Below are positions 5,058-42,160 of a DNA stretch of 61,894 bases, one piece after another. The DNA comes from Pseudomonadota bacterium (lineage in GTDB: Bacteria; Pseudomonadota; Alphaproteobacteria; Sphingomonadales; Sphingomonadaceae). Positions within the stretch are counted from its first letter, which is position 1. Every line of letters begins with the position of its first letter. Position numbers and translations under genes: made by a program. The notes beneath the pieces were generated by a model that did not search any database, was not told the origin of the DNA, and saw only the letters and a list, made by a program, of their open reading frames with translations. The DNA is taken from the NCBI GenBank assembly GCA_046733135.1, contig JBKPON010000013.1:1-61894 (forward strand), in the 5' to 3' direction.

Positions 5058-5333
5058 ATGAAGATCAGGAACATCGCCATCGCCGGAGCCGCGGCGGCTG
5101 TCGTTTCGACCGCCTCAATCGCGTCGCCAGTCAAGCCCCAGCCGAACAAGGACAAGTGCTTCGGCATTTCGCTTGCCGGCAGGAACGACTGCGCGGCGGG
5201 CGCCGGCACGACCTGCGCCGGCACTTCCAGGCGCGACTACCAGGGCAATGCCTGGAAATATGTCGCCAAGGGCACCTGCACGGCGATCAAAACGCCCAAG
5301 GGCAATGGTTCACTCACTCCGAAAAAGGGCTGA
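5058..5333 (+). CDS. Bufferin-type RiPP precursor (DUF2282 / BufA1 family)
   Basis: Signal peptide plus four-Cys pattern [38 protein letters not shown]; directly upstream of DUF692. Confidence 0.9.
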
Positions 5334-5336
5334 ACC

Positions 5337-6164
5337 ATGACTCCCGCTGCCGGTGTCGGCTTCAAGGCCGAGCATTATGCAGAGGCGCTCGCCGCGCCGG
5401 CGGCGGACCTCTGGTTCGAAGTTCATTCTGAAAACTATATGGTCGCGGGCGGGCCGCGCTTGGCGATGCTGGAAGCGGTCCGACGAGAGCGGCTTGTGTC
5501 CTTGCACGGCGTCGGAATGTCCCTCGCTGGCCAAGCCGAACCGGATCCCGACCACCTCGCCGCGCTGAAACGGTTGGTCGACCGGTTCGAGCCCGCGCTT
5601 GTTTCCGAGCATCTGGCATGGTCACGCCTGGACGGGCGCTGCTTCCCCGATCTGCTCCCAGTGCCGCGCACGAATGAAGTGCTCGCGCGCTGCGCGGATA
5701 ACATCGGCCGCCTGCAGGATGCGCTCGGGCGCCGGATCCTGATTGAGAATCCGAGCCACTATCTGGCTCTTCGCGATCACCAGTGGAGCGAAACGAGTTT
5801 CCTTTCCGAGCTCGCCCGCCGCAGCGGCTGTGGGCTGCTGATCGACGTCAACAACGTCGCGGTCGGAGCGCACAATCTTGGCTATGATCCATTCGCCTGG
5901 TTGGAGACGATTTCCGCCGATTACGTCGGAGAGATCCACCTTGCCGGCCATTCACTGGACGCCGAGGGCACGCTTCTCATTGATAGTCACGATGAACCGA
6001 TCAGCGACGACGTCTGGAGCCTCTACGAGGCGCTGACTGCACGCATTGGTCCGCGGCCAACATTGATCGAGCGTGACGGCAACCTGCCGCCGTTCGCGGA
6101 ACTGATGCGCGAGCGCGAACGCGCACAGGGCCTTCTCCTCGGGGAGTTCGCCCTTGCTGCCTGA
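5337..6164 (+). CDS. DUF692 multinuclear non-heme iron oxidative enzyme (MNIO, BufB-like)
   Basis: FEVHSENYM, LHGVGMSL, SEHLAW, IENP, DVNN, EIHLAGH, DSH, IERD motifs. Confidence 0.93.
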   Translation: MTPAAGVGFKAEHYAEALAAPAADLWFEVHSENYMVAGGPRLAMLEAVRRERLVSLHGVGMSLAGQAEPDPDHLAALKRLVDRFEPALVSEHLAWSRLDGRCFPDLLPVPRTNEVLARCADNIGRLQDALGRRILIENPSHYLALRDHQWSETSFLSELARRSGCGLLIDVNNVAVGAHNLGYDPFAWLETISADYVGEIHLAGHSLDAEGTLLIDSHDEPISDDVWSLYEALTARIGPRPTLIERDGNLPPFAELMRERERAQGLLLGEFALAA

Positions 6165-6882
6165 ACTCCTCGCATTTCAGCGCGATTTTGTTGCCGCGCT
6201 CGATCATCCCGCGACTGGTGCGATGTCGGTCTATCGCAACACGGTCCTTCGCGGCGCCGTCGAGGCACTGCGCGCAAACTACCGCGTCGTCGAGCAGATT
6301 GTAGGCCACGAAATGTTCGAGGCGGTCGCGGTGGACTATGCGACCGAATGTCCGCCGCGGCAACCGGTGCTGGCGCTCTACGGTGCTCGTTTTGCCGAGT
6401 GGCTTGAGGGTCAGCAATGGGTTCGAGAACTTCCTTATCTCCCCGACGTTGCACGGGTCGAGCGCCTGTGCATCGAGAGTCTGATGGCCGCAGACGCCGA
6501 AGCGCTCTCGGCCGCGGATTTTGCCGGACGGAACATTGCGCGCCATGCGTTGAAGCTGCATCCGGCTCTTCGATTTACCTGGCTTCCGACGCCGGCGATG
6601 AGCATCTGGCTTGCACACCAACGGCCTGTTTCGTCCGAGCTGAAAGTCGACTGGAAGGCGGAAGGCGCCCTGTTCGCGCGGCCGAGCCCCAATATCATTC
6701 ATTCGCCGCGCATCGGCCCCGCCGCCCACCGGCTGCTGTACGGCATCCGTATCGGCGAAAGTATCGACAGTTCATTGGCGGCGGCCGCCAAGCTTTACCC
6801 TGACGCGGACTGCGAAGCTTTGTTCACATCGCTCCTCAACCTCGGCGCATTCGTCGCCACTTCCAAAAGGACTCCATCATGA
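6154..6882 (+). CDS. DUF2063 partner protein (BufC/HvfC-like)
   Basis: [36 protein letters not shown]; overlaps the DUF692 stop. Confidence 0.85.
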
Positions 6883-7337
6883 GCAGGCAAGCTGCCGCGC
6901 CTATTTGGCGCGCTCCGTTTGAGTTCATCGCGACGAGCGCTCGCACGTTGCTGCCTTCGTCGCTCCTCCTTCTCGTGCAACGGCTCGGAATCGCGGCTGT
7001 GTTCTTCATGTCCGGCCGAACCAAGGTCGACGGTCTGCTCACCGTCAATGATTCCGCGTTCGAGCTCTTCCGCTCAGAATATGCGCTGCCACTGGTGAAG
7101 CCGGAGATCGCTGCCTACGCCGCCACCTACAGCGAGCATCTGTTTCCGCTGCTCCTCGTCCTTGGCCTTTTCACAAGGTTCGCCGCCTCGGCGCTCCTGA
7201 TTATGACCTTGATCATCGAGATTTTCGTCTATCCGGACGCTTGGCCGACGCACTTGAGCTGGGCTGGTCTTCTCCTCCCGCTTATCGCGCTCGGCGGCGG
7301 CAAGCTCTCGCTGGACCGGTTGTTGCGGATTCCCTGA
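6879..7337 (+). CDS. DoxX family membrane protein (BufD-like)
   Basis: [46 protein letters not shown]; ATGA coupling. Confidence 0.9.
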
Positions 7338-7530
7338 GGTTGGGCCGTTGCACCGGGACTCAACCTTGTAAGCGTCTTCGCCACACGGATCCCGATCGAG
7401 TCATCCACGGCAGTTGGACCGTAACGGATGCGCTCCGCAGATCGAAGTTGTCATGGCTGCGTCCCCCAGGAGCCACCTCTGACGATCCGCTTGTCGCAGT
7501 CGCCGCCTTCCGAAGTTGCAGACATTTCCC

Positions 7531-7560
7531 GAGGTCCGCTTACTGACCGTTGCGAACATT
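7531..7560 (+). repeat. 12-6-12 imperfect palindrome, copy 1 (degenerate extra copy at about 7501-7526)
   Basis: GAG GTCCGC TTA CTGACC GTT GCGAAC ATT. Confidence 0.65.
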
Positions 7561-7639
7561 GGCTCGACCGACGGCGGCAATCGTCGTAAGTCGGCGAATT
7601 GGCGAAGATCGGTCGCCGCCAACTTGATACTAAATTAGA

Positions 7640-8437
7640 ATGCAGCTGAAATGTCTTATCCGGGCGTGGTTCTCACGCTTTGCCGTGTCCGCTGCCGAGC
7701 GCCCGATATTCATATTCGGATCAGCCTACCGGTGCGGGAGCACACTTCTGCAGCGCTATTTGAACTCGTCTGGATGTGTCTTCATTTGGGGCGAAAACGA
7801 CGGGCTGGCAGAGCGGATCATCGAAACAATCACGTTCTCACAAGAGTGGGTCGAAACATCTGACCGCCAAGAACGGGCTTTCAAATCAAAGAGACATTTG
7901 GCGTGGATTGCGAACTTGAACCCCAGGGTCAACAAGTCGAAATTCCTCAAAGCGGCGCTTCTGGCGTATTACCCAAATACTTCTCCGAATGGTGCCGCGC
8001 GCTGGGGGTTTAAGGAGGTCAGACATACCGGCGCTGTCGCTGACTTGTTGTTAGGAGCATTTCCACACGGACGCGTGTTGTTTTTGGTGCGGGGTCTTGA
8101 GGACGTGCTTGCGTCAAATGCTGGGACAGATTGGTACGCGGCCGTGGGTGGAGCAGAGGGTGTGAAACTGCTGTGGCTGAAGACCGTTCGATCCTTCTTG
8201 TCATTCGATGACCCGCGCTCAATGCTCATCCGCCTTGAATCCCTCGCTTCTCGAAACGAAACTTGCCTCAACCAATTGGCGCATTTTCTGGACATCCCAC
8301 GTGGTTGCTTCGACGATCGCGTGCTCGAGATGATCGTGCGCGGTTCAAGTGGGTCGCCCAAACTCGCCGCGCCCGAGCGACGGGCGTTGGCTGATCCGCA
8401 GATCGCGCAAGTTGCAGCTATGCTTCCGGATTGGTGA
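7640..8437 (+). CDS. Sulfotransferase family protein
   Basis: PAPS loop IFIFGSAYRCGSTLL, WGEN, RWGFKEVR, FLVR..EDV.AS; more AT-rich codon use than neighbours; start uncertain. Confidence 0.75.
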   Translation: MQLKCLIRAWFSRFAVSAAERPIFIFGSAYRCGSTLLQRYLNSSGCVFIWGENDGLAERIIETITFSQEWVETSDRQERAFKSKRHLAWIANLNPRVNKSKFLKAALLAYYPNTSPNGAARWGFKEVRHTGAVADLLLGAFPHGRVLFLVRGLEDVLASNAGTDWYAAVGGAEGVKLLWLKTVRSFLSFDDPRSMLIRLESLASRNETCLNQLAHFLDIPRGCFDDRVLEMIVRGSSGSPKLAAPERRALADPQIAQVAAMLPDW

Positions 8438-8647
8438 TGTTGCACGCCTGAAGGTTGCGAAGCGAGTCGCCTCGCAAATGCATCTTCATCGATCATGTGA
8501 GCGAGGCTGCGATCATGCTCCCACCGCCTCCCCGAAAAGGCGGGGTGTCGACACGAGATACCACCGCCAATCCAGCAACCGCAGTATTCGGCTCCAAGGA
8601 ATTCATGCTAAACGGCCACCCGATCGGTTATCGACGAGGCTATCCGG

Positions 8648-9457
8648 ATGAGCGCAAAGGCGCCTCACAACGGCAGGTATCTAATCGCCGGCGCTGCGAT
8701 CATAGCCGTTGCCATTGGCGCTTACGAGTTCACGCTCAGCTACCCGCCGCTCGGGCCGGTCGCGGGAACTATCTTTCCCCAGCATTATGTCGACTCACTG
8801 ACCGACGGCGAGATCCCGCAGCGTGGCCGCTTTGTCCTCGTCGATGCCGCCTCCGCGCGGTTATTCATGATCGAAGACGGGCGCGTGCGGGACTCGATGC
8901 GGGTGATCGTGGGCAAGCCTGAAACCCCGACACCGGCGCTGAAGAGCGTCATCAACTATGAGACGCTGAACCCTTACTGGCACGTGACTCCTGATCTTGC
9001 GAAGACGCTCATCGCTCCGCGCGTGCTCAAGGACGGCAACTCCTATCTGAGCGAGCGTGGCTATCAGATTCTCTCGAAATTTGGGCCCGATGCGCGGGTG
9101 CTGTCACCCGACAGTATCGATTGGAAAGCGGTCGCGGCCGGCGAGGCGCAGGTCCTTGTCCGCCAACTTCCTGGCCCAGCCAATTCCTTGGGTCAGTTCA
9201 AGTTCGACTTGCCGGACAGCGACGGTGTCTATCTCCACGACACCCCCAAGAAAGAACTTTTCGCCCAGGACGAGCGCAGTCTCAGCCACGGCTGCGTCCG
9301 GCTCGAGGACGCGCCCAGGCTTGCGCGGTGGCTGCTCGGCAATGATCCACCGGCGGTTTCGGTCCCCGAGCAGCACATCGCACTTCCGCGGCCAGTACCG
9401 ATCACGATCGCCTATCTCGGCTCCCGTGCGCAAATGCAGGTCGCGGGGCTGCAGTAA
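8648..9457 (+). CDS. L,D-transpeptidase (YkuD family, LdtD-like catalytic domain)
   Basis: MRVIVGKPETPTP, LNPYWHV, RQLPGPANSLG, YLHDTP...SHGCVRL; N-terminal TM segment. Confidence 0.9.
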   Translation: MSAKAPHNGRYLIAGAAIIAVAIGAYEFTLSYPPLGPVAGTIFPQHYVDSLTDGEIPQRGRFVLVDAASARLFMIEDGRVRDSMRVIVGKPETPTPALKSVINYETLNPYWHVTPDLAKTLIAPRVLKDGNSYLSERGYQILSKFGPDARVLSPDSIDWKAVAAGEAQVLVRQLPGPANSLGQFKFDLPDSDGVYLHDTPKKELFAQDERSLSHGCVRLEDAPRLARWLLGNDPPAVSVPEQHIALPRPVPITIAYLGSRAQMQVAGLQ

Positions 9458-9522
9458 CTGCTGAAATCGCCGACAATGACGCGCCCGCCCGGCCAGAAGT
9501 TCGCGATATGATCGCTCGGCAT

Positions 9523-9702
9523 CTACCGCTTTATGGGGCGAGATCCCCAGCGCTCCTCATATGCCGCGATGGCATCTGCTAGCTCGTCGTAACGCCTCGC
9601 CATCTCGAAATGGGCCGCCCGAGCCTGGGGATGAGCCGCCTCCAAGGCGGCCTTTGTTTCTTCATATGCCCGAAGGCCGAAATAGGTCAGGTCGTCCAAC
9701 AT
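9523..9702 (-). CDS. Small helical-hairpin protein (YxxRAxEE...HxxxAxxY family)
   Basis: 59 aa from ATG 9702; motif shared with three other ORFs in the window. Confidence 0.7.
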   Translation of the reverse strand: MLDDLTYFGLRAYEETKAALEAAHPQARAAHFEMARRYDELADAIAAYEERWGSRPIKR

Positions 9703-9851
9703 TTTACCGCCCTGATCCCCGTCTGAGCGAAACGCAACTGAAGTCCGAAGTTCGGATAGCACGGGCGAGCGGTCGGTTTTATATCCCACGAATGATTTGG
9801 CTCAAAGTGGGACTTCGCACGGCGCGGATGTTGGCGACCGACACATTTGCC

Positions 9852-9881
9852 CAAGTCCGTCCTCCATTCAAAGCTGCCGGA
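9852..9881 (+). repeat. 12-6-12 palindrome, degenerate copy 2
   Basis: CAA GTCCGT CCT CCATTC AAA GCTGCC GGA. Confidence 0.45.
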
Positions 9882-10028
9882 AAGCTTGCGAGTCGGCGGG
9901 TCGTGACGTTGGGGCGGCCACGGTCGAGATTGTGCGGCTCGTCGCCGTGCTTCTTTCGGGAACTTGCGATAGACAACAAAGTCGGGGACAGGTACGCCGG
10001 GAATGAGCTTCACGGGCGGTGGTCTGAT

Positions 10029-10151
10029 ATGACAAAGATCGACTTCAACAGATCATTCAAGTGGCCGCTAAGAATCAGAGTAGAGATTCTGCTCGCACTT
10101 CTCATCGCTTCCTGGCTGTTTGTCATGGTTGTTGTCCGGCTTCTGTTCTGA
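10029..10151 (+). CDS. Possible 40-aa single-pass membrane peptide
   Basis: MTKIDFNRSFKWPLRIRVEILLALLIASWLFVMVVVRLLF; one clean hydrophobic helix; weak RBS. Confidence 0.4.
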   Translation: MTKIDFNRSFKWPLRIRVEILLALLIASWLFVMVVVRLLF

Positions 10152-10179
10152 CGGAGGCTTGGCGTTCAATTCCGACCCA

Positions 10180-10209
10180 TTCGTCAGCTTTCGACCCAAA
10201 CCGGACATT
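10180..10209 (+). repeat. 12-6-12 palindrome, copy 3
   Basis: TTC GTCAGC TTT CGACCC AAA CCGGAC ATT; ends 20 nt from the protease stop. Confidence 0.75.
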
Positions 10210-10228
10210 TGGTCAGCACCACGCGGAT

Positions 10229-11317
10229 TTAGGACGTGCGTTCGGCCGGTGAGATGCGGTTCTCGCTGGTGATCAGCTCAAGGCGCACCACGCGCCCGTC
10301 CTTGCGAAAGAACTGGATGCGGTCGCCAGTTTCCGACATCTCGAACAGATCGCCCCCTAGGTAGGTCAGCACATGGGGCGGTCGGCCGTCCCGCTGGTGG
10401 ACGAGCTTGCCTTGCTCGAGGCGAATGGTGCGCGGCCCGAAGCGGCCGGTGAAATCCGCCCACGTCGGTTTTTCGCTTGCCGGATCGAGCACCCAGCTGC
10501 GTTTGTTGGCTGGATCGAGCACGATGGTGAGGTGGCGGATCAGCGGGAAGCCGACATTGATGACCGTATCGACGAATGCGACCGCAGGTTCCTTCACGCT
10601 GTACGGCCCTATCTCGACCGAACCCACGAGTTCGCCCCCAAGCACGTCTTGCTCGGCGAGAGCGGAGACCGCTTTTCCGACCACGCTGGCCGGGGCCTTC
10701 AGAGGGTGCGATTTCAGTGAATCCGCGGGAAGCGAGAGGGCGGCGTCATGGCCGGTGTCGAGCACGGCATCGTAGGATTTCCCGGCGATGCGGATCTCGG
10801 CTGCAGGGATATCTTCCTCATAGGCATGGCCGGGCCCGGGTGGGACGTAACCGCTGTCCTTGGCAATGATCCTCAGGCGGTTGAGCCCGGCTTCGACGAC
10901 GACGTACCGGTTGCCGAAACTGTACGGGCCGAAGATCCCGACTTCGTCCCCGGAGCGAGCGTGGGGAAGCCGAACCACTTTGATGTCGAGCGGCACGCCG
11001 CTGAGCCGCGCGTCCGGCGCCGCCGCCGTCGGCACTCGGACCGATTTCTTGCTCGCGTCGTCGACGAGGTTGAAATGCCCGACGACCTTGAGCCCGATGC
11101 GCCTGGCCAGCCCGGCATCGAGGATGTTCTCGGTCGTCCCGGTGTCGAAGACCACCGGCATCGGCGCGCTGTCGCCGATCGTCAGCATAGCGATCGGCCG
11201 GCTCGTCGAGACGTAGAGCGGCACGATCTCGCTCGGCGACGGGGCGGCGCCGGCCGGCATTGCGCCCGACGTCGCGGCGAGGACTGAAACGTAGAACCAC
11301 ACTCGAAGAGCTCTCAT
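10229..11317 (-). CDS. Secreted two-domain clan AA (retropepsin-like) aspartic protease with a C-terminal beta domain
   Basis: Signal peptide; VVFDTGT and AVLDTGH catalytic motifs; GGGAG RBS before ATG 11317. Confidence 0.85.
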   Translation of the reverse strand: MRALRVWFYVSVLAATSGAMPAGAAPSPSEIVPLYVSTSRPIAMLTIGDSAPMPVVFDTGTTENILDAGLARRIGLKVVGHFNLVDDASKKSVRVPTAAAPDARLSGVPLDIKVVRLPHARSGDEVGIFGPYSFGNRYVVVEAGLNRLRIIAKDSGYVPPGPGHAYEEDIPAAEIRIAGKSYDAVLDTGHDAALSLPADSLKSHPLKAPASVVGKAVSALAEQDVLGGELVGSVEIGPYSVKEPAVAFVDTVINVGFPLIRHLTIVLDPANKRSWVLDPASEKPTWADFTGRFGPRTIRLEQGKLVHQRDGRPPHVLTYLGGDLFEMSETGDRIQFFRKDGRVVRLELITSENRISPAERTS

Positions 11318-11397
11318 GGCGCGCTCCCAACTATGACACGAGGCCGCACGATGTGGGTGCCAATCGGTGCTTTGGCCAGCCATAATCGAAGTGTGCG

Positions 11398-11427
11398 AAT
11401 GTCTGCCTTCCGCCCGTTGCGGACCTT
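11398..11427 (+). repeat. 12-6-12 palindrome, copy 4
   Basis: AAT GTCTGC CTT CCGCCC GTT GCGGAC CTT. Confidence 0.75.
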
Positions 11428-11661
11428 CGCGTGCAATCCCCTCTGACGCGCTATGCTCCCGGCCGCGTTAGGCTCTTGGGGCTGCGCCATGCTAAGGGAC
11501 GCTATCGCGCACGCATCCCCTTCGTAGGCAATGGCGCGGCTGAGAGACATCCTCGTGCTCCCGCTTACTGGAACGGAGCACATCTTGAACCCTAAGGAAA
11601 AGACAAGCGCTATCCCGTCGAGCCGGTGTCGTCGACGGGGCCGGGCAGGAGGAGAATGACC

Positions 11662-11775
11662 ATGGCTAAAGGCCAGATGCGATCCAATAAGGAAGCCCGC
11701 AAGCCCAAGGCGGCCAAACCGAAGAAGGTCCACGGCGGCAAAGCAAGCCCGAAATTGGTGAAGGACAGCCGATGA
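11662..11775 (+). CDS. 37-aa Lys-rich small protein
   Basis: Below the ORF-track cutoff. AGGAGGAG RBS; MAKGQMRSNKEARKPKAAKPKKVHGGKASPKLVKDSR; ATGA overlap with next gene. Confidence 0.75.
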   Translation: MAKGQMRSNKEARKPKAAKPKKVHGGKASPKLVKDSR

Positions 11776-11996
11776 CCCGCGTCATTTTGCTATCGATGAA
11801 AGAAGTCGACGTGATCGCCAAATGCAAAGAGGGTAAAGTGGGGGTCTCGGCGATCGAGCGACTGGCGAGCGGTGGCGTGCGCCTGGTTTGCATGAGCAGC
11901 GACGGCGCGATGACGATGCGCAAAAAACTGAAAGCGCACATCATCGACGGCGAAGTCGTCCGGGAGCGTTTCCGCCCCATTAAACCGCAGTGGTGA
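11772..11996 (+). CDS. Hypothetical protein (74 aa)
   Basis: Translationally coupled to the upstream peptide; globular-looking VSAIERLASGGVRLVC. Confidence 0.7.
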   Translation: MTRVILLSMKEVDVIAKCKEGKVGVSAIERLASGGVRLVCMSSDGAMTMRKKLKAHIIDGEVVRERFRPIKPQW

Positions 11997-12063
11997 GGGG
12001 CCGCCGATTGGACTTAGGCAAAATCGCCGCTTCGAGAGTTATCCACAAGTAATTGAAGGCACG

Positions 12064-12179
12064 CCCGAGTCGGCGAGTAGACGGAGTGGCTCGGGGGTGT
12101 AGTGTGTTGGGGTGCATTGAGCCTTCGGGTTCAAAGCATGGGGAACCCCGCCGGGTCAAACCGGTGGGGTTTACCATTT
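12064..12179 (+). ncRNA. Candidate structured small RNA
   Basis: Hairpin 12064-12095, cUUCGg hairpin 12113-12138, terminator-like stem 12144-12171 followed by TACCATTT; no convincing ORF. Confidence 0.4.
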
Positions 12180-12246
12180 GTGGAGACGGATCCCCCCTCG
12201 CGACCAGCAAATCGCCTGTTTCGTCGGTAGGTGCACGGGAAGGCCA

Positions 12247-12447
12247 ATGCGCGCAGACCGGTCCGCAAGACAGGTTTCAAGGGACGGAGTTGCAGGTCTG
12301 CCATCGGCCGCTATTTGCGAGGCCCGTGCAGCGCAGGCGCTCGAGGCCGCAGAGAAGACAAATCTGACGAACCGCCGAGAGCTTTACACGCGCTCCGCGC
12401 TCCGTTGGTCCGAACTCGCTCAACGGACAACAACAACGCGCTCCTGA
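12247..12447 (+). CDS. Small helical-hairpin protein (divergent family member)
   Basis: GGGAAGG RBS; ICEARAAQALEAAEKTNLTNRRELYTRSALRW aligns without gaps to the family. Confidence 0.55.
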   Translation: MRADRSARQVSRDGVAGLPSAAICEARAAQALEAAEKTNLTNRRELYTRSALRWSELAQRTTTTRS

Positions 12448-12487
12448 TGCTGCCCATACCATCGTGGGTCCCCGCGCTCCGACGCGT

Positions 12488-13417
12488 TCAGCAGTCCGAG
12501 TTTATTGCCACGTCCAGCCACGGCTTCGAAGCTTCGAGTTCTTGCTTTGCTTCCGCAACCAACCACTCGGCGAAACGTGCGATCTTCTCAGTGCCGCGTC
12601 GCAGCGGAGGATAGGCAAGCCAGAACGACCGACCCGTCGCCACCACCAACGGGTGCGCAGGTACGAGCCTGCCGGCTTCCAGCTCCCGCCGGCAGAGCAA
12701 GGGAGAGCCCAAGGTAATCCCGTGTCCCGCGATGGCGGCCGCCGCATCCAGATATTCGTCGGCGAATCGAAACTGAGTCTCGCATTTCTGGTCGAAGCCA
12801 AGAGCTTTGAACCACACCTCCCACCAGTCTTGCCGGCCAAGCAGCGGAATTGGCAATTGCGAATGCGGCCATCGGCTGTCGCGCACGGCCGCAAGGAGCG
12901 AGGGCGCACAAAGCGGCATGAAGATGCTTGGAAAGAGAAATGTCGATTGCAGGCCCGGCCAATGCCCATGGCCGTTGCGGATCGCGATGTCGAAGCCATC
13001 TCCGATCAGGTCCCGCGCTCCCGCGGAAAGATCGAGTTCCAGCTTCACCTGCGGAAGTTTTGACTTGAGCTGTCCGAGCCTCGGCACCAGCCAGCTTGTT
13101 CCGAACGTCGGCAAGGCGGTGATCTTTAAACTCGACCGGTCGACGTCCACCGCTCGAGTGAAGCTCGAACGAAGGGCACAAAGTGCCTCGATCGTGCTTT
13201 CGGCCGCCGCCAACCCCGCTTCGGTGAGCTCAACGCGTTGAGCCAGGCGGCGGAAGAGCTGAGCACCGACCTGAGTTTCGAGTTGACGGATGTGGTAACT
13301 GACGGATGCGGCCGTCGTGCCCAACTCAAGCGCGGCTTTCGCGAAACTGCCGTGCCGAGCGGCAGCTTCGAAAGCTCCGATCGACACGAGCGAAGGCATG
13401 CGGGACTTCGAGAGCAT
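12488..13417 (-). CDS. LysR family regulator (GcvA/AmpR-like)
   Basis: PSL..I.AFEAAARHGSFAKAALEL, WLVPRL, DIAIRNG.G.WPGL. Confidence 0.93.
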   Translation of the reverse strand: MLSKSRMPSLVSIGAFEAAARHGSFAKAALELGTTAASVSYHIRQLETQVGAQLFRRLAQRVELTEAGLAAAESTIEALCALRSSFTRAVDVDRSSLKITALPTFGTSWLVPRLGQLKSKLPQVKLELDLSAGARDLIGDGFDIAIRNGHGHWPGLQSTFLFPSIFMPLCAPSLLAAVRDSRWPHSQLPIPLLGRQDWWEVWFKALGFDQKCETQFRFADEYLDAAAAIAGHGITLGSPLLCRRELEAGRLVPAHPLVVATGRSFWLAYPPLRRGTEKIARFAEWLVAEAKQELEASKPWLDVAINSDC

Positions 13418-13429
13418 AAGTCAGACTTA
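13417..13429. promoter_or_regulatory. LysR T-N11-A operator between divergent genes
   Basis: TAAG-TCAGA-CTTA dyad at the LysR start. Confidence 0.55.
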
Positions 13430-13501
13430 GCCTATAAGCCAAAGTCCTGTCTTGTGCAGCAGCTTGAGCGACGTGAAACCGGCCGCTCATCGGAGGTCCG
13501 C

Positions 13502-14083
13502 ATGAACGTCATTGTCCGTTGTGCGCTGTGCGCCGCAGCTTTTGTCTCGCCGGCGTCAGCCGATAATTTGCCGCCTACGCCTACCCCTGCACCCGCGTAT
13601 CGCGATGGGGCTCACGATTTCGACTTCCTGATCGGAAACTGGCGAGCGCATGTCCGCCGCCTTCCTGACCGGCTCGTCGGATCACATCGGTGGATCGAGT
13701 ACGACGGTATTTCGAACCATCATAAGATTTTGGACAGCAACGCCAACTTCGAACAATTCGAAGTCACGTCGAAGGATGGCAAGGACCATATGAAGGCGCA
13801 GACGCTGCGCCTTTACAATCCCGACACGCACCAATGGTCCATTTACCTGCTGGACGTGGATAAGGGGGCTTTACCAATGCCGCCGGTGGTCGGTGAGTTC
13901 AGCGGCGGCCGGGGTGAGTTCTACGATCAGGAAACGTACAAAGGCCGAGCCATTTTCGTTCGGTACCTTTGGCTGAACCTGTCGCCCACATCGGCCCGAA
14001 TGGAGCAATCATTTTCCGCGGACGGCGGAAAGAGCTGGGAAACGAACTGGATCTGCGAGCTCACTCGCTCTCCGCCAGGTTGA
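13502..14083 (+). CDS. Secreted hypothetical protein (DUF1579-like beta barrel)
   Basis: GGAGG RBS, signal peptide; HDFDFLIGNW, LRLYNP..QWSI, EQSFSADGGKSWETNW. Confidence 0.75.
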   Translation: MNVIVRCALCAAAFVSPASADNLPPTPTPAPAYRDGAHDFDFLIGNWRAHVRRLPDRLVGSHRWIEYDGISNHHKILDSNANFEQFEVTSKDGKDHMKAQTLRLYNPDTHQWSIYLLDVDKGALPMPPVVGEFSGGRGEFYDQETYKGRAIFVRYLWLNLSPTSARMEQSFSADGGKSWETNWICELTRSPPG

Positions 14084-14097
14084 GCTAGCTCAAACCG

Positions 14098-14126
14098 TTT
14101 GTCCGCCTTCCCGCAAAACGGCCTCT
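14098..14126 (+). repeat. 12-6-12 palindrome, degenerate copy 5 (1-nt deletion)
   Basis: TTT GTCCGC CTT CCCGC AAA ACGGCC; 15 nt after the stop at 14083. Confidence 0.5.
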
Positions 14127-14200
14127 CCTCGTGTGTCTCACAATCGTACGGCAACAAGTAAACGGCTTCCCAGATGCATCCCGCTGATCAAGATGTGCGG

Positions 14201-14398
14201 ATGGACATCGAACATCTCGATTACGCCCAGCTCAGTGAGGATGCGATGGCTGCTGCCGATAGCGCGATGTCGGTAGAAGAGTGTCAGATGCATCTCGCTC
14301 GGGCGGTGCGCTATGCTTCGCTCGCCTGTATGCAGCAACAACGGTCGCCCGACTTCAACGTCGTCGAAATACGACCGGAGATGGGCCGGCAGTTCTGA
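14201..14398 (+). CDS. Small helical-hairpin protein
   Basis: DYAQLSEDAMAAADSA....MHLARAVRY aligns to the family motif; start 14174 or 14201. Confidence 0.6.
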   Translation: MDIEHLDYAQLSEDAMAAADSAMSVEECQMHLARAVRYASLACMQQQRSPDFNVVEIRPEMGRQF

Positions 14399-14443
14399 TC
14401 GCCAGCTCGGTTTCTCGCCATCAGCTTTTGATATAGATGCGAG

Positions 14444-14473
14444 AGCCGCCGCTCGGTTTCCCGAACGGCGGCT
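14444..14473. terminator. Hairpin between convergent genes
   Basis: AGCCGCCG...CGGCGGCT stem with an inner TCGG/CCGA pair. Confidence 0.6.
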
Positions 14474-14496
14474 TCCTCTCCACTCAATATTGAGAG

Positions 14497-15456
14497 TCAG
14501 GCGACTTCGCGCTCAAGCTCGGCCTCCTCAACCATCGTCTCCGGCAAGCCCGAGTCCGCGTCAACTGACTCGGCTGTGCCGGCGGCCACCTCGCGTTCGC
14601 GCTTGTCGAAAAAGGCGGCGCGCTTCAACCGCGCCCTCAACGATACCGAGGGATTGGCGGGGGACGGACCGCGATATGCGCGCTCGATCCAGGTTTCGCC
14701 GGGGCGACGGTCCGAACCGTCATCGTCTGACGACTGAACGATCGGCTGCGCGTTCCCCCAAGCAAAGGCGGACGGAGCGACAATCGCCGGCTGCTCGGCA
14801 GGTACGACCGGATCGTGGCGCGGGATCGAAGGCTCGGCCGCGACCATGGCTTCGGGCTCATAATTCGGCTCGTAGACTTCCTCGGTCATCTGCTCGTCGC
14901 GCCGGCGGCGCAGCAGGGCATACGCGCCCCCTCCAAGCGCGAGAAGCGCGAGCGCTCCGGCGCCGAGCTCAATCGCGGTTTCGTTCGAATTACCATTCTC
15001 CGGCTTCACCGCGAGTTGCGCGGCGGGGTTGTTCGGAGATTTGTCGGTAACATCCACGATCGGCTTGACCGCGGACTGCCTCGCTGCGGGGACTGCCGTA
15101 GCAGCAACCGGGGCGGTGGAGGTGGGTTTCGGGCTGGCCGATCGGTTTTGGACTTGTCGAGCGACTGCGTGGGTCGCGACTGTGTGGGTTTTGCGCGCCG
15201 GGGTGGTTTGCTTGGCGGGCGTACTAGCTGTCTCGGGTGCCGGATCCGCCATATCGGTCGCGGGGGTCGCCGTGTCGGTGGTTACCGGCGCGGCTTCCGG
15301 CGCTGGCGCGGCTTCTGGCGTTGACGAAATCGTCGGCGGCGGCGCGGTGGTTGGCGGAGCCTCCTGGGCTCGAAGAGGGGTTGAACAAAGCGCCAAGACC
15401 GCGGCAATCGCGGTAGCGCCGGCTCGTGCATATAGCGTGCTGGTGATCATCATCAT
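14497..15456 (-). CDS. Exported Pro/Thr/Ala-rich single-pass membrane protein
   Basis: Signal peptide, low-complexity P/T/A region, TM helix followed by RRRR, charged C-terminal domain. Confidence 0.75.
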   Translation of the reverse strand: MMMITSTLYARAGATAIAAVLALCSTPLRAQEAPPTTAPPPTISSTPEAAPAPEAAPVTTDTATPATDMADPAPETASTPAKQTTPARKTHTVATHAVARQVQNRSASPKPTSTAPVAATAVPAARQSAVKPIVDVTDKSPNNPAAQLAVKPENGNSNETAIELGAGALALLALGGGAYALLRRRRDEQMTEEVYEPNYEPEAMVAAEPSIPRHDPVVPAEQPAIVAPSAFAWGNAQPIVQSSDDDGSDRRPGETWIERAYRGPSPANPSVSLRARLKRAAFFDKREREVAAGTAESVDADSGLPETMVEEAELEREVA

Positions 15457-15678
15457 GCCGAAACAACCGTCGGGAAACTCTGTCGGTCGCACGATTATCG
15501 CCGAAAAGACCGTGAGGTTCGACGAAGCGATTTCGTGTATAAACCGTTGCTATTATTAGGAAAAACATGTTGTCCTAAGGAGCAGCGCGGGGGCTTGACG
15601 TTTACATCGGTGGCGTTCGGTGTCGGGTCGATTCGCCTGTCGACAACTTCGGAGGGTTAGGAAGAGCGTCTTGCGCGG

Positions 15679-16320
15679 TTACTCCTGATTCCCGTCACTT
15701 TCGGCATTAGCCGGTTCGTCTGTGTCAATATTCGAACTTGGATTGTCTTCTGCATCCCCCTGCTCTTCCATGACGTCGGCCTGTTCTTGGATGACGTCGG
15801 CCTCGGCAGTCCGTCCTGGCTCCTGCCCATCGTCGGCTCGCGCAACAACAGTGGGAATCGGGCGCTCGACCACGAGCCGAGAGGAGGTCGTCGGCGGGGT
15901 GGCATTGATGTTCGTCGTCTGCGGGTCTGCGGGGGACCCGATGAAATTCCAATCGACATTCGCGGCGAGATTTTCATCGTTGTCAGTCGTGTGCTGCGCG
16001 GAAGGGGGAAGCCAAATCAGCGTGTAAATGCTGCTTCCTGACAAAAGGACCAGGAGCGCACCCAGCCCCCAGTCCCGCTCCGGCCATTTAGGACGGCGTC
16101 GCGGGAACAGCAGCCAGGCGGTAAGCGCGCATAAGATCAGCGTCCCGATCGCGCCGTTACGCTTGAACGTGACGATTGTCGTGCGGACATGCTCAGTCCC
16201 CTTAGCTACCGTTTCACCATGCGGGCTCATCATCAGGCCGATGCCCCACGTCACTATGGTGGCGAGCAGCAGAAGCGCGCCCATGAACAACCGGGCGCGG
16301 CCGATCCCGCGGTTCCTCAC
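15679..16320 (-). CDS. Hypothetical membrane protein (3 TM plus acidic tail)
   Basis: GAGGAAAG before GTG; three hydrophobic segments; D/E/N-rich C-terminus. Confidence 0.65.
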   Translation of the reverse strand: MRNRGIGRARLFMGALLLLATIVTWGIGLMMSPHGETVAKGTEHVRTTIVTFKRNGAIGTLILCALTAWLLFPRRRPKWPERDWGLGALLVLLSGSSIYTLIWLPPSAQHTTDNDENLAANVDWNFIGSPADPQTTNINATPPTTSSRLVVERPIPTVVARADDGQEPGRTAEADVIQEQADVMEEQGDAEDNPSSNIDTDEPANAESDGNQE

Positions 16321-16531
16321 ATCTTTCCTCGCTGGCGGCGCATGTCTGAAAGATCCTTCAGATGGATTCGTCCTGGCGGAAGGAAGACTTGTCAGCCGGG
16401 TCTGGTTCCTTCAGCCCCTTCGCCAGGTCGCGCCTTCCATTGCAGACTCGGGGCATCAAGTCGCCGGGCTACCTCGTCAGGAGTCATGACTCCCCGATAG
16501 AGTCCTGATATCCAAGGGAGAAGGGGCTGAC

Positions 16532-18280
16532 ATGTCGGACGTCTTCGTGTCTTACGCGCGGCCGGACGAGCCGCAGGCGAAGCGCGTCGCCGACACGCTG
16601 CGCGGCGAAGGCTATTGCGTTTGGCGCGATGACGAATTGCCCGCCCACCGCGCTTATACCGACGTGATCGAGGAACGGCTGGGCTCGGCCGGCGCGGTCG
16701 TCGTGCTGTGGTCGGCCGACGCGGTGAAGTCACAATGGGTGCGAGCCGAGGCGGATGCGGCGCGGACCTTTGGCACGTTGGTCCAGGCGACGCTGGACGG
16801 CTCCCTTCCGCCAATGCCTTTCAACCAGATTCAGTGCGCGGATTTGAAAGCCTGGGACGGCGAGACAGAGACACCCGGGTGGCGCAAGCTTCGAGCGAGT
16901 GTCGGAGCATTGGCGGGCCAACCCGCAGCCAACCACCCTCCGGTGAAAATCGGGCGCGAGCGCTCGATTTGCGTGCTGCCCTTCGCCAATATGAGCGGCG
17001 ATATCGAGCAGGAATATTTCAGCGACGGAATCAGCGAGGACATCACCACCGACCTGTCGAAAGTGTCCGCGCTTGCGGTGACCGCGCGGAACACGGCGTT
17101 CACCTACAAGGGTCAAGCCGTCGACGTGTGCGACGTCGCGCACAAACTCGGGGTCAGCCACGTGCTTGAAGGCAGCGTGCGCAAGGCCGGCGGACGAGTG
17201 CGAATAACGGCACAGCTGATCGACGGCACTAGCGGCGACCATGTTTGGGCCGAGCGGTACGACCGCGACTTGACCGACATTTTCGCCCTGCAGGACGAGA
17301 TTTCGAGCGCGATCGTGGACGCGCTCAAAGTCAAACTTTTGCCCGAAGAGAGGAAAGCTATCGAAAGCCGCGGCACGTCGAACGTGGACGCCTACAACCT
17401 TTATTTGATGGCGCGGCAATGCTGGGTGAGCGGTGATTTCGGCAGCCGGCGTCGCGAAGAGAAGGTCATTCGAATTTGCCGAAAGGCGATCGAACTCGAC
17501 CCGGAATATCCTCAAGCCTGGGCACTGATGGCGCTCGCCCAGGCCAATCTGTGCCACGGGTTCAGCGAGAATCTGTGCGATGACGATGGCGCCGCCGCCG
17601 CCGAGCGGGCGCTCGATCTCGATCCGACAATCGCCGAGGCGCATTTGCCCAAGGCTTGGGCGCTGGTCGAGCGGGGTCAGATTGACGAGGCCAATGCGGT
17701 GCTGGCGCTCGCGCTCGAGCTCGCGCCTGATTCGTGGGAAGTGAACAAGGAATCCGCTCGGCTCTATTACCGACAGAGGAGAATTGACGAGGCGACGCGG
17801 CGGCTGGAAAAGGCAATGACCCTGATGGAAAGCGATTTCCATGGCTGGGGGATGTTGTTCGCTTGCTACAACGCCCTACAAGATGCGGCGAAGGCCCGGC
17901 ACTGCGGCGAGCGCATCATCAAGAATGTCGAGGATGCCCTCAGCCGGGATCCCGATAATGGCACGGCTTTAGCCTTCGGCGCGCTGGGCTCTGCCGCGCT
18001 CGGTCAGCTAGAGCGCGCGCGCCAGTGGATGGATCGGGCGCTGTTGCTCGACCCTGACAATCTCTTCATGCGGTACAATTTGTCGATGGGCTTGCTGGTC
18101 TTCTTTAAGGACAAGGAGGCCGCAATGACGATGATCGGCTCCGTGCTCCCAAAGGCGGGCCCAAGCGTGATACAGCTGGCCGCGAGTGACCCGAACCTGG
18201 ATCCCCTGCGGGACGACGCGCGATTTCAGGAAATGTTGGCCGCGGCAAAGGAGCGCGTGGGCATCCGTACGCAGAACTGA
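16532..18280 (+). CDS. TIR domain - TolB-like N-terminal domain - TPR protein
   Basis: MSDVFVSYAR, VVLWSADAVKSQWVRAEA (TIR); ICVLPFANMSGDIEQEYFSDGISEDI, VLEGSVRK, WAERYDRDL; several TPR units. Confidence 0.9.
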   Translation: MSDVFVSYARPDEPQAKRVADTLRGEGYCVWRDDELPAHRAYTDVIEERLGSAGAVVVLWSADAVKSQWVRAEADAARTFGTLVQATLDGSLPPMPFNQIQCADLKAWDGETETPGWRKLRASVGALAGQPAANHPPVKIGRERSICVLPFANMSGDIEQEYFSDGISEDITTDLSKVSALAVTARNTAFTYKGQAVDVCDVAHKLGVSHVLEGSVRKAGGRVRITAQLIDGTSGDHVWAERYDRDLTDIFALQDEISSAIVDALKVKLLPEERKAIESRGTSNVDAYNLYLMARQCWVSGDFGSRRREEKVIRICRKAIELDPEYPQAWALMALAQANLCHGFSENLCDDDGAAAAERALDLDPTIAEAHLPKAWALVERGQIDEANAVLALALELAPDSWEVNKESARLYYRQRRIDEATRRLEKAMTLMESDFHGWGMLFACYNALQDAAKARHCGERIIKNVEDALSRDPDNGTALAFGALGSAALGQLERARQWMDRALLLDPDNLFMRYNLSMGLLVFFKDKEAAMTMIGSVLPKAGPSVIQLAASDPNLDPLRDDARFQEMLAAAKERVGIRTQN

Positions 18281-18290
18281 GCGCGGGCGA

Positions 18291-19097
18291 TCACGTTCCG
18301 CGCCACTTTGGCTGACGCTTCTCGAGAAACGCGCTGATCCCTTCCTCGGCATCCGTCGTCTGCATGTTCTCGACCATGACGCGCGACATATGCTCATAGG
18401 CTTCGGCAAGACCCATCCCCGCCTGCTGCAACACCGCTTCCTTGCCCAGCCGCACGGCGATGGGCGACTTGGCGGCGATGGTCCTCGCATAGTCGCTGAC
18501 GAATTGTGCGAGAGACGCACGCGGAACGACGCGATTCACCAACCCGTATTCGCAAGCGGTTCGCGCATCGATCATCTCGCCCGTCAGAAGCATTTCCATC
18601 GCCCGCTTCGGGCCGACGCTGCGCGTCAGCGCCACGGCTGGAGTCGCGCAGAATAGACCGACGTCGATGCCGTTGACGCCAAACCGCGCTTGGTCCGAAG
18701 CGACAACCAAGGCACAGGAGGCGACCAGCTGGCAACCCGCCGCGGTCGCGATGCCGTCGACTTCCGCGATGATCGGCTTGGGATGATTCACGACCGTTTG
18801 CATCAGGCGCGAGCAGAGCGCGAAAGTGTGCACGAAGAAGCTCTTGCCCCCGTCGGCATCGGCGCGATGCGCCGTCATTTCCTTAAGGTCGTGCCCCGCA
18901 GAGAACAGCTTTCCTTCGGCCGCGAGAACGATAACGTGGATTGCCGGGTCATTTTCGACCCGCTCTAGCTCCGACTGCAGCGATTGCATGACGTCGACCG
19001 AGAGGAGGTTAGCCGGCGGGCTGTAGAGCGTCAGGCGAAGGATCGGCCCCTGCCGTTCGGCGCGGATGTTCCGCTGCAGTTTGGAGAGTTCGGTCAC
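18291..19097 (-). CDS. Enoyl-CoA hydratase/isomerase family protein
   Basis: FSAGHDLKEM, ATAAGCQLVASC, GLFCATP, EGISAFLEKRQPKW; GTG start after GAGGGAG. Confidence 0.9.
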   Translation of the reverse strand: MTELSKLQRNIRAERQGPILRLTLYSPPANLLSVDVMQSLQSELERVENDPAIHVIVLAAEGKLFSAGHDLKEMTAHRADADGGKSFFVHTFALCSRLMQTVVNHPKPIIAEVDGIATAAGCQLVASCALVVASDQARFGVNGIDVGLFCATPAVALTRSVGPKRAMEMLLTGEMIDARTACEYGLVNRVVPRASLAQFVSDYARTIAAKSPIAVRLGKEAVLQQAGMGLAEAYEHMSRVMVENMQTTDAEEGISAFLEKRQPKWRGT

Positions 19098-19184
19098 GTC
19101 TGCTCCCTCGCCCAATAGGGCCACGACGGATTTAACACCGCGCGCGCTTGTCACCTACTTCGGTCAACAGGGGCGGTCCCTTGA

Positions 19185-19214
19185 GTCCATCCCAAACCGA
19201 CCATTGCGGACATC
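19185..19214 (+). repeat. 12-6-12 palindrome, copy 6 (right arm intact)
   Basis: GTC CATCCC AAA CCGACC ATT GCGGAC ATC in a divergent intergenic region. Confidence 0.55.
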
Positions 19215-39317: not shown

Positions 39318-42125
39318 ATGCGTTTTTCAAGCCGCTTCGCCCTGCTTGCCGCCGCGACGATCCTCACGCCGTCCGCCTTAGCCGCGACGCCCGCGTCCAA
39401 GTCGGTTCCCATTCCCGCGCTCGTCAAGCAAGTGTCGATTCCACACACGACTTTCCGGCTCGCGAACGGCCTGACGGTGATTGTCCATGAAGATCACAAG
39501 GCGCCGATCGTCGCAGTCAACGTGTGGTACAATGTGGGATCGAAGGACGAGCCGAAGGCCAAGACCGGCTTCGCCCACCTGTTCGAACATCTGATGTTCA
39601 ACGGCACCGAAAATCTGCAGGGCGACTATTTCACTTACCTGGAGCAGGTCGGCGCGACCGATTACAACGGCACGACCTCCTACGACCGAACTAATTATTT
39701 CGAGACCGTGCCCACTGGAGCGCTGGAGCGCGCATTGTTCATGGAAAGCGACCGCATGGGCCATCTGCTCGGCGCGGTGACCCAGGGCGTACTCGATAAT
39801 CAGCGTAGCGTCGTCCAGAACGAAAAGCGCCAAGGGGACAGCCGCCCGGGCGGGTTGGTTCAGTACGAAATGTTCGGCAATCTCTTCCCGCCGGGCCACC
39901 CCTACCATCACACCACCATCGGATCGATGGCTGACCTCGATGCCGCGAGCCTCGAGGACGTGAAGCAATGGTTTCGCGACAAATACGGGCCGAACAACGC
40001 CGTGCTCGTGATTGCCGGCGACGTCACCGCAGCGCAGGCCCGGCCACTCGTGGAAAAGTATTTCGGGGATATCGCGCGCGGTCCCGTGAACAACCCGGCG
40101 ATGGCGACGGTGCCCACCTTGGCCAAGCCCAAGACCATCGAAATGAAAGACAATGTCGCGACCACCATCATTCAGCGCTATTGGGCGGTCCCAGGATTGC
40201 TCGACAAAAAGCTGGCGGCGCTCGACATCGGAGGATCGGTTCTCGGCGGCCTCGCCAGTTCGCGTCTCGACAAGATCTTGGTGCGCGATGAAAAGATCGC
40301 GGTCGGAGTCAGCGCGGGGCTCACTCCGCTGCAACGGGCGGGAATATTCTCGGTCAGCGCCTACGTGAAGCCGGGCGTCGATCCGACCTTGGTCTCCAAG
40401 CGGCTCGACCAGGTGATGGCCGACTATCTCGCCAAAGGACCGACCGCCGATGAAGTCGAGCGCGCGGTCATGAGCGAGGTTTCGAACCGGATCCGCGGCC
40501 TGGAGCAGGTCGGCGACTTCGAAGGGAAGGCATCGACCCTGGCAGAAGGCCAGACATACGCCCACGACAGCGACTTCTACAAAAAGACGCTCGCGTCCTA
40601 TGCCGCGATCACTCCGGCGGTTGTCCGCACGACCATGCAGCAGTGGCTGCGGCGACCAGCGCTGACGATCATCCTTTCGCCCGGTGAACGCGCCGCCTAT
40701 GCGGAATCGAAGAGCAATGGCGAGGTGAAGCCGGCTCCCGACAAGGCCGCCGGCCTCCAACTGAAACCGACGCGGCAGCTCCCGCCCGTTGGCCAGCTGG
40801 CAGCGCTCGATTTCCCAACGATCGAGCATCTGCAACTCGCCAACGGAATGCCGGTTGAATATGTGCAGCGCACCGCGGTTCCGGTGACCCAAATGGCGCT
40901 GGCGTTCGACGCCGGTGACTCTGCCGACAGTCCCACTGCGCGTGGCCTCGCTGCGCTAACGGCCCAACTGCTGGATGAAGGCACGACGTCGCTGACATCG
41001 CAGGAACTTGCGGAGGCCGAGGAACGGCTTGGAGCCAATGTCAGCGCCAACAACACGGCCGACCGTTCCTATGTGATGCTCAACGCGCTTTCGTCAAACA
41101 TCGCGCCGTCGCTCGACTTGCTTGTCGACGTGGTGAAGAATCCCGCGTTCCGGGCGACGGACATCGACCGGTTGAAGGCGCAGACCCTGACAGCCATCGC
41201 GCAGTTGCAGAAGGACCCGACGCGGGTGGCGAACCGCTTGCTACCTAGCGTATTGTTCGGGGCGAACCACCCGTATGGCGGGCCGGCGGGCGGCGACCCG
41301 AAGGCTATTGCCGCCTTCACGCGCGACGATTTCGTCGGGTTCCAGCACCACTGGCTGCGCCCCGACAATGGGAAGCTGTTCGTCGTCTCGAGCCTGCCCT
41401 GGTCAGAGCTCAAGCCGCTGATCGACGAACGCCTCGGGCAATGGGCGGCGCCGACTGCTGCGAGGGGGGTGAAGAGCTTCACTCCTCCTCCGTCGCGTCC
41501 GGGCGCGCAGAAGATCCTCCTCGTCAATCGCCCTGGCGCGCCGCAGTCGAGCATCGTCGGCGGCCAGCTGATCCCCATCGATCCCAAGGGAGATGTCGTT
41601 CCGCTAGACGCGGCCAACGACGTCCTCGGCGGCGACTTCCTGTCACGACTCAACATGGACCTGCGCGAGGAGAAGGGCTGGTCTTATGGCGTGAGCGGCC
41701 GAACGCGGCTGCTCGAAAACGGCGTGAGCTACGTGATTTCCGCGCCTGTCCAGGCAGACAAGACCGGCGATGCGCTGCTCGAGCTCAACGCGCAGGTGAA
41801 CCAGTTCCTCGCCAACAAAGGGGTCACCCAAGAGGAGCTCGAGCGGACCATCGCGAGCAAGGTCAACGAGCTTCCCGGCGAGTTCGAGACGGGAGGGGCG
41901 GTGATTAGCGCGCTGATGGCCATGGACCTGCTCAAGCGACCCGATAATTACTACGAGCTGCTTCCGGCCAAATATCACGCCCAGACAGCTCAGTCGCTCG
42001 ATCAAGCCATTCGCGGCGTGATCGATCCCAAGGGTTTCACCTGGATCGTGGTCGGCGACGCTGCGACCGTGCGGCCGCAGCTGGAAAAGCTGGGCATGCC
42101 GATCGAGGTGGTCGAAGCGCCCTAA
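39318..42125 (+). CDS. M16 family zinc peptidase (pitrilysin-like), exported
   Basis: Signal peptide; GFAHLFEHLMF (HxxEH); second half with LREEKGWSYG. Confidence 0.93.
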   Translation: MRFSSRFALLAAATILTPSALAATPASKSVPIPALVKQVSIPHTTFRLANGLTVIVHEDHKAPIVAVNVWYNVGSKDEPKAKTGFAHLFEHLMFNGTENLQGDYFTYLEQVGATDYNGTTSYDRTNYFETVPTGALERALFMESDRMGHLLGAVTQGVLDNQRSVVQNEKRQGDSRPGGLVQYEMFGNLFPPGHPYHHTTIGSMADLDAASLEDVKQWFRDKYGPNNAVLVIAGDVTAAQARPLVEKYFGDIARGPVNNPAMATVPTLAKPKTIEMKDNVATTIIQRYWAVPGLLDKKLAALDIGGSVLGGLASSRLDKILVRDEKIAVGVSAGLTPLQRAGIFSVSAYVKPGVDPTLVSKRLDQVMADYLAKGPTADEVERAVMSEVSNRIRGLEQVGDFEGKASTLAEGQTYAHDSDFYKKTLASYAAITPAVVRTTMQQWLRRPALTIILSPGERAAYAESKSNGEVKPAPDKAAGLQLKPTRQLPPVGQLAALDFPTIEHLQLANGMPVEYVQRTAVPVTQMALAFDAGDSADSPTARGLAALTAQLLDEGTTSLTSQELAEAEERLGANVSANNTADRSYVMLNALSSNIAPSLDLLVDVVKNPAFRATDIDRLKAQTLTAIAQLQKDPTRVANRLLPSVLFGANHPYGGPAGGDPKAIAAFTRDDFVGFQHHWLRPDNGKLFVVSSLPWSELKPLIDERLGQWAAPTAARGVKSFTPPPSRPGAQKILLVNRPGAPQSSIVGGQLIPIDPKGDVVPLDAANDVLGGDFLSRLNMDLREEKGWSYGVSGRTRLLENGVSYVISAPVQADKTGDALLELNAQVNQFLANKGVTQEELERTIASKVNELPGEFETGGAVISALMAMDLLKRPDNYYELLPAKYHAQTAQSLDQAIRGVIDPKGFTWIVVGDAATVRPQLEKLGMPIEVVEAP

Positions 42126-42131
42126 CCCTGG

Positions 42132-42160
42132 TTCCTCCCTATCCGAAGGCTGGGGAGGGA
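42132..42160. terminator. Hairpin between convergent genes
   Basis: TTCCTCCC...GGGAGGGA stem. Confidence 0.5.

Follow-up and report, generated by a model that had tools for sequence, protein, structure and literature searches.

Background

Sites built from symmetric arms around an asymmetric core are the substrates of Cre/loxP-type recombination, and inverted repeats are acted upon by the FimB and FimE recombinases, which measure only about 200 residues. A different class of short repeats, REP and REPIN, is likewise intergenic and palindromic, is patchily distributed among lineages, and is accompanied by RAYT transposases of the Y1 HUH type. Gene capture by integrons and CALINs involves the integrase IntI, the attI site and arrays of attC cassettes (PMC8618304, PMC9024848). 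IntI is marked by a specific insertion in its catalytic domain (PMC8138268), and integrons are given as very rare in Alphaproteobacteria for reasons that are unclear (PMC9024848). PMC13141974 describes a further system, the pdif modules of Acinetobacter, with XerC/XerD, sites of about 28-30 bp and a tolerance for one spacer mismatch. Here, we analyse 30-bp repeats in the accessory region of a 61,894-nt stretch of a Sphingomonadaceae bacterium (contig JBKPON010000013.1; henceforth, the window is this whole stretch). These repeats probably represent an enzyme-less, partly decayed array of sites that are worked by a tyrosine recombinase of about 200 residues, which we found beside such sites in relatives. 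Our literature search found no description of the site or the enzyme, although it could have missed a family that is listed solely in supplementary files or in journals behind a subscription; the recombinase-cassette system is thus apparently undescribed so far.

A family of co-oriented 30-bp sites

The repeats were scored with a matrix built from 495 sites, all from outside the window, with the reversed genome as null. Their consensus, AATGTCCGC TTT C(C/G)ACCC A(T/A)(T/A) GCGGACATT, follows a 12-6-12 layout, in which two inverted arms of 9-12 bp flank an asymmetric 6-bp core that occurs in a C-type and a G-type form (C/G). A first-pass annotation, made from the sequence without database searches, had recognized this layout of arms and a 6-nt core correctly, but its GTT variant is in the minority, G being found there in 6 % of cases. 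The most conserved part of the site, according to the matrix columns, is its unpaired centre. Furthermore, the two arms of a site show no co-variation with each other (65 shared, as compared with 76.7 in within-genome permutation), the folding of the copies in the window is weak (-0.5 to -5.4 kcal/mol), and conserved GTT/AAC ends of the attC R-box type were not found in the column frequencies, in line with the annotation's remark that R boxes are lacking. A search of Rfam gave three matches, at chance level, and a generic repeat search of the window failed to recover the family.

Co-variation of a cassette's inner arms was not supported in the assembly that contains the window (p 0.24). Pooled across genomes and after within-genome permutation, p amounted to 0.13 for inner arms, 0.016 for outer arms and 0.02 for doublets, among six tests; arm co-variation is weak or absent, and we do not rely on it. 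Two genomes (G041, G042) display a genome-wide shift in both arms at the complementary positions 5 and 26, which is symmetric site drift within a lineage.

The assembly itself (2.5 Mb, 256 contigs, 93 % complete) harbors 64 sites of at least 17 bits on 19 contigs, as opposed to none in the reversed genome. Only two of them lie inside genes although 84 % of the assembly is coding, 55 have a neighbour within 3 kb vs 7.4 expected from random intergenic placement, and the orientation is the same in 42 of 44 neighbour pairs (p 1e-10). The sites separate accessory genes that are unrelated to one another, and an interval often holds just one of them. Genes and gene neighbourhoods in common with contigs of Sphingomonas and Sphingomicrobium suggest that the host is a sphingomonad. 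Hence, both the common orientation and the gathering among accessory genes, which the first-pass annotation had noticed within the window, hold for the genome at large. Among the cargo within the arrays or next to them, TIR-domain proteins occur repeatedly (contigs C8, C26, C33, C164, C167, C170 and C181, and positions 16532-18280 of the window), as judged by their N-termini and a single Pfam scan; they may serve in defence or signalling.

Loci pooled from many genomes exhibit the same organization, as 411 of 471 neighbour pairs were co-oriented, 45 inward-facing and 15 outward-facing, and one locus (L064) accommodates 17 sites, all co-oriented, within 6 kb. A single called gene was present in 191 of the 234 gene-bearing intervals; a simple gene caller found none in 112 further intervals. 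Cargo is read in either direction (113 genes with the site, 78 against it) and likely brings its own promoters.

With regards to its distribution, the 24-nt pattern of the site was detected in 14 of 18 genomes of the genus and in one of 12 from other genera of the order, and sites were present in 64 of the 76 genus genomes that are at least 98 % complete (this tally and that of the enzyme below both count the unpublished G099 as one row). The number of stretches with exact matches in the species collection, from Sphingomonadales, Caulobacterales, Xanthomonadales and others, is estimated at 1,100. Such matches were also present in 10 viral contigs, and blastn of the site at window position 11398 against plasmids returned only matches with E of at least 1. 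The abundance per genome ranges from tens to more than 100 sites and is patchy among species, and in closed genomes the sites form many small clusters. A binding of orientation to the replichores was rejected, as clusters of either sign are intermingled in the closed genomes G045 and G050. Four prophage-like contigs (L009, L010, L012 and L018) carry one- or two-gene modules between sites and are a possible route of spread.

A small tyrosine recombinase faced by the sites

The first-pass annotation had stated that no recombinase is encoded in the window, which we confirmed; the whole assembly contains just two recombinase-type PF00589 genes, both XerC/D-like. Clustering of the proteins around 135 loci revealed no recurrent mobility protein other than a PF00589 protein of about 200 residues, which adjoins sites in two of these loci. 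Its close clade (41 distinct genes of at least 65 % identity) forms one branch with an SH-aLRT support of 100 in a quick tree that omitted 6 of 115 rows for being short or containing stops. The proteins are 197-203 residues long and comprise the catalytic domain only, without a core-binding domain; R48, K76, H145, R148, H171 and Y180 are invariant in 25 aligned rows, so that the R-K-H-R-H/W-Y catalytic set is complete, and the predicted fold matches Xer/Cre catalytic domains in a model of moderate quality (pLDDT 66). In an NCBIfam search, the recombinase stayed below every curated cut-off, with no IntI family and only weak Xer-type matches, and the FimB/FimE profiles reached about 20 bits at cut-offs of 221-222.

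The arrangement of sites around this gene is strikingly regular. Where a close-clade gene has an upstream site, this faces the gene in 37 of 38 cases (31 of them within 140 bp), and the downstream site does so in 38 of 38; within 5 kb, 80 of the 86 sites upstream and 90 of the 92 sites downstream point towards it. Arrays extend outward from it on both sides, the recombinase-proximal core is of C-type in 67 of 71 cases, and in the closed genomes G045 and G050 the flips of site orientation fall on the recombinase gene. This unit was found in unrelated neighbourhoods, with conservation of its inner, not its outer, arms. The annotation had proposed to look for a tyrosine recombinase or RAYT whose presence tracks the sites; a linked recombinase exists in relatives, but it does not track the sites genome by genome: a full-length close-clade gene was present in 17 of 64 site-bearing and in 0 of 12 site-free near-complete genomes (p=0.06, kin not being independent).

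Distant members of the family (50-62 % identity) often possess sites with the same arms, other cores and fixed places, as seen by eye for many, not all, rows. The copy on an E. coli plasmid has same-arm sites at distances of 36 bp upstream and 16 bp downstream of the gene, with 0 matches in the null, while two other plasmid copies had 0 and 2 weaker site matches; altogether, relatives of the recombinase reside on 272 plasmids, enterobacterial ones included. Three genomes without the 24-nt pattern (G037, G039 and G061; loci L308, L309 and L304) possess a distant recombinase between sites whose centre measures 13 nt. In Noviluteimonas gilva (L045), one array combines the same arms with two core types, CGACCC and CGGCCA, which suggests two enzyme specificities in a single array. 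Another locus (L176:13908-14666, on G016:C7) shows inward-facing sites with recombinase-type inner arms that enclose no recombinase gene, and may be a platform that was emptied.

Homology breaks at the sites

In an all-against-all comparison, homologous segments met at a site in both partners of 41 pairs, with a median flank identity of 0.72 inside vs 0.28 outside. Non-consensus arm letters were shared at 77 of 137 positions inside vs 10 of 112 outside; this partition would place the exchange of the recombinase unit in the invariant centre of the site. The annotation had proposed to look for breakpoints in the core, and homology indeed breaks at the sites. For instance, the aspartyl-protease gene between the window's sites at 10180 and 11398 recurs in 6 of 270 other genomes of the genus, each time in a different neighbourhood: homology between the window and G002:C96 begins at the 10180 site, the homologous protease gene on G002:C350 is bordered by a site at the end that corresponds to the window's 11398, and in G091 sites enclose a two-gene version of the module. 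In addition, one module of G016 is present in three arrays, and contigs of sister strains depart from the array on contig C170 of the window's assembly at its 5973 site. At window position 42125-42161, a peptidase gene is joined directly to purK, where G244 (L320:5775-8440) has three extra genes including this protease; this insertion displays a right-arm remnant only, together with a short duplicate of flanking gene ends.

Model and alternative explanations

We propose that the small recombinase would excise, insert and reorder genes between 30-bp sites. It would bind the two arms of these probably lox-like sites in double-stranded DNA, with strand exchange in the invariant centre. Between direct repeats, modules could leave as circles and re-insert at another site, so that arrays would grow co-oriented from a seed site, while the inverted pair around the enzyme gene would let this gene flip or be swapped by double crossover. 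The enzyme would consequently come and go, and orphan arrays would accumulate and decay. On the array in the window, the recombinase would have acted in trans, as proposed by the annotation.

Several observations weigh against this model. The close-clade enzyme is missing from 47 of the 64 site-bearing genomes and was not found in the 93 %-complete assembly of the window; without a core-binding domain, it may need a partner, and the dimorphic core would be disfavoured under strict core homology. The partition of arm letters derives mostly from related pairs flanking the recombinase; the 15 pairs away from it share 6 of 25 letters inside vs 7 of 45 outside, which is uninformative, and just 42 of 281 alignment ends fall at sites (5.4 expected uniformly, from a null unmatched to gene ends). 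Three of the six protease-bearing genomes have no scored site nearby. The sole clean strain-level deletion, of 1,793 bp in C170, has a 6-bp microhomology and misses the cores, and a strain of about 97 % identity keeps the window's layout. Finally, the assembled contigs revealed neither circles nor excision junctions nor inversions; contigs from 7 runs likewise contained no site-to-site excision joint with adequate side lengths, in the window or C170, and the short joints between sites likely stem from sites of other organisms.

A host enzyme, XerC/XerD or some other core protein, might instead work the sites in a pdif-like manner, with the small recombinase as a mere passenger cassette. The two Xer-like genes as the sole PF00589 members of the assembly, the lack of a close-clade gene in most site-rich genomes (some with more than 100 matches) and the occurrence of the site across phyla all fit this explanation. 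However, the arms are unlike the XerC/XerD arms tabulated in PMC13141974, a separate dif-like site exists in this genome (C186:4758) and in four closed relatives, and cargo lies between direct, not inverted, sites. Moreover, the small recombinase lies in a privileged position, at the flip of orientation, and different enzyme clades go with different core variants. Taken together, we regard a host enzyme as unlikely. Slightly less probable still seems a variant in which the small recombinase is indeed the enzyme, but modules are transferred chiefly through double crossovers, either between arrays or out of linear DNA that enters the cell, instead of as free circles, with G-core and C-core sites as non-equivalent ends. 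Such cassette exchange would agree with cargo intervals favouring G-to-C (92, vs 20 C-to-G, besides 66 C-to-C and 43 G-to-G), with the empty doublets of 26-37 bp, which are common and C-to-G in 20 of 27 cases, and with the C-type bias next to the recombinase; in addition, a unit with inverted ends cannot exit as a simple circle, yet it moves. On the other hand, repeated single-site insertion yields uniform head-to-tail arrays, as seen, and the dimorphic position 14 of the site partitions cleanly with neither side (1/4, 1/3).

Selfish hairpins of the REP or MITE kind, spread by an HUH transposase and gathering in the intergenic space of low-constraint regions, would equally be short, imperfectly palindromic, intergenic, numerous (tens to more than 100 per genome) and patchy among species. 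Yet the assembly contains no Y1_Tnp/RAYT (PF01797, 0 matches), IS110 or resolvase gene, within its 93 % completeness and with RAYT sought there only; the arms do not co-vary, folding is weak, conservation peaks in the unpaired centre, and pairs are direct rather than inverted. Orientation and recombinase linkage largely refute this explanation, to which we assign a very small probability.

If the small recombinase is the enzyme, the system would be a third natural cassette system beside integrons and pdif, a reading we consider somewhat better than even: a minimal recombinase without a core-binding domain would travel as its own inverted-site cassette and seed two-sided arrays. Genomes of sphingomonads, caulobacters and xanthomonads would each have been left with tens of capture sites, and sister pairs of enzyme and site would extend to enterobacterial plasmids. 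Were this true, the system would occupy the niche of the "missing integron" in Alphaproteobacteria, provide the smallest toolkit for lox-like recombination, and partly explain how single accessory genes are gained and reordered in these soil bacteria. Tools based on attC would miss such a system. As relatives occur on plasmids, enterobacterial ones among them, the movement of genes with clinical relevance may involve the family as well, and one protein of 200 residues together with a 30-bp site makes the question testable.

The array in the window

The window contains a modest, ageing and partly decayed array without an enzyme. The first-pass annotation had listed eight copies with the right coordinates and 6-nt cores, of which two are strong, two are significant remnants, one is borderline and three are unsupported by scoring. 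Both strong sites are on the plus strand: one at 10180..10209 (G-type core CGACCC, 36.9 bits), 19 bp past the stop codon of the protease gene, the other at 11398..11427 (core CCGCCC, 31.5 bits), 80 bp upstream of its start, and the null contains no score as high as either. Between them lies the clearest cassette, the gene of a secreted aspartyl protease on the minus strand (10229..11317, Pfam Asp_protease_2). An extra core remnant, TTC CGACCC ATT (10170..10181, plus strand), is fused to the first of these sites 19 bp before its core and is likely a scar; fused doublets of 17 and 20 bp also occur at another locus (L202).

The left edge of the array is formed by a decayed site at 7531..7560 (plus strand, 12.2 bits, 0.005 expected per 12 kb). 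A possible remnant 33 bp ahead of it, at 7498..7526 on the same strand (7501 in the annotation), has a doublet-like spacing and is not significant alone, with 9.3 bits under a first matrix and less than 3 under a second one. The site at 14098..14126 (plus strand), with a 1-nt deletion, is borderline (8.2 bits, 0.05 expected) and sits 15 bp after the stop codon of a secreted-protein gene. The copy reported at 19185, which marks the accessory region's right-hand edge, is supported in its right half only (19197..19214, plus strand, 0.005 expected per 12 kb); this half-site falls between the genes for an enoyl-CoA hydratase and an amino-acid permease, which are unlinked in the relatives inspected. 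The copy at 9852..9881 (plus strand, 1.8 bits, not significant) is too decayed to stand alone, and matrix scoring gave no support to the remnant at 9795. All supported copies are on the plus strand and intergenic, as originally described. Beyond 14.1 kb, no full site of at least 3 bits was found; the claim that sites are absent past 20 kb therefore stands for full sites, but four right-half matches (20178, 28292, 36274 and 36852, all minus strand) lie there inside coding genes.

Further cargo comprises sulfotransferase and L,D-transpeptidase genes identified by Pfam (7640..9457, plus strand), two small open reading frames (ORFs), a LysR regulator and a divergent secreted protein between the 11398 and 14098 sites (11656..14083), and, from there to 19197, three ORFs without Pfam match, a TIR-TPR protein and the enoyl-CoA hydratase (14174..19154), an interval that retains no internal sites. 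Directly left of the array (5058-7337) is a cluster of a small precursor-like ORF, an MbnB/TglH/ChrH-family enzyme, its partner and a DoxX gene. Far outside the array, at 44465-44585, an intergenic inverted repeat with 39-nt arms separated by 43 nt looks like an unrelated REP-type stem-loop, flanked by genes that we take to be GGDEF-like and phosphoglycerate-mutase-like.

Comparison with known systems

The arrays are reminiscent of integrons in that a tyrosine recombinase gene stands beside tandem, co-oriented modules that mostly hold one gene, and of CALINs in that many arrays lack the enzyme. In contrast to integrons, however, the enzyme has about 200 residues, no core-binding domain and no IntI match in NCBIfam, and the sites are fixed 30-bp dyads without hairpin covariation or attC ends, the latter judged by the R-box motif in the column frequencies. 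Arrays lie on both sides of the recombinase gene, genes point either way instead of being read in one direction from Pc at a single attI, and each genome carries many small arrays, in a host group where integrons are very rare. The pdif modules share the two arms with a 6-bp spacer bounding gene modules, and the dimorphic core recalls the spacer mismatch that they tolerate. Nevertheless, the two arms here are equivalent and not dif-like, cargo lies between direct sites instead of alternating inverted ones, inversion being restricted to the surroundings of the recombinase, and there is a dedicated mobile recombinase with chromosomal arrays. Symmetric arms with an asymmetric core are shared with Cre/loxP, and an enzyme of about 200 residues with FimB/FimE, systems where one site pair stands in place of tens of sites and cargo arrays. 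With REP and REPIN, the sites have in common that they are short, intergenic, palindromic and lineage-patchy, but they are co-oriented and bound modules, show no hairpin covariation, and no RAYT was found in the window's assembly. Thus, the integron- or pdif-like module system envisaged by the first-pass annotation is supported as a likeness and not as a membership: the system works like an integron or a pdif array, yet it belongs to neither, nor to the REP elements.

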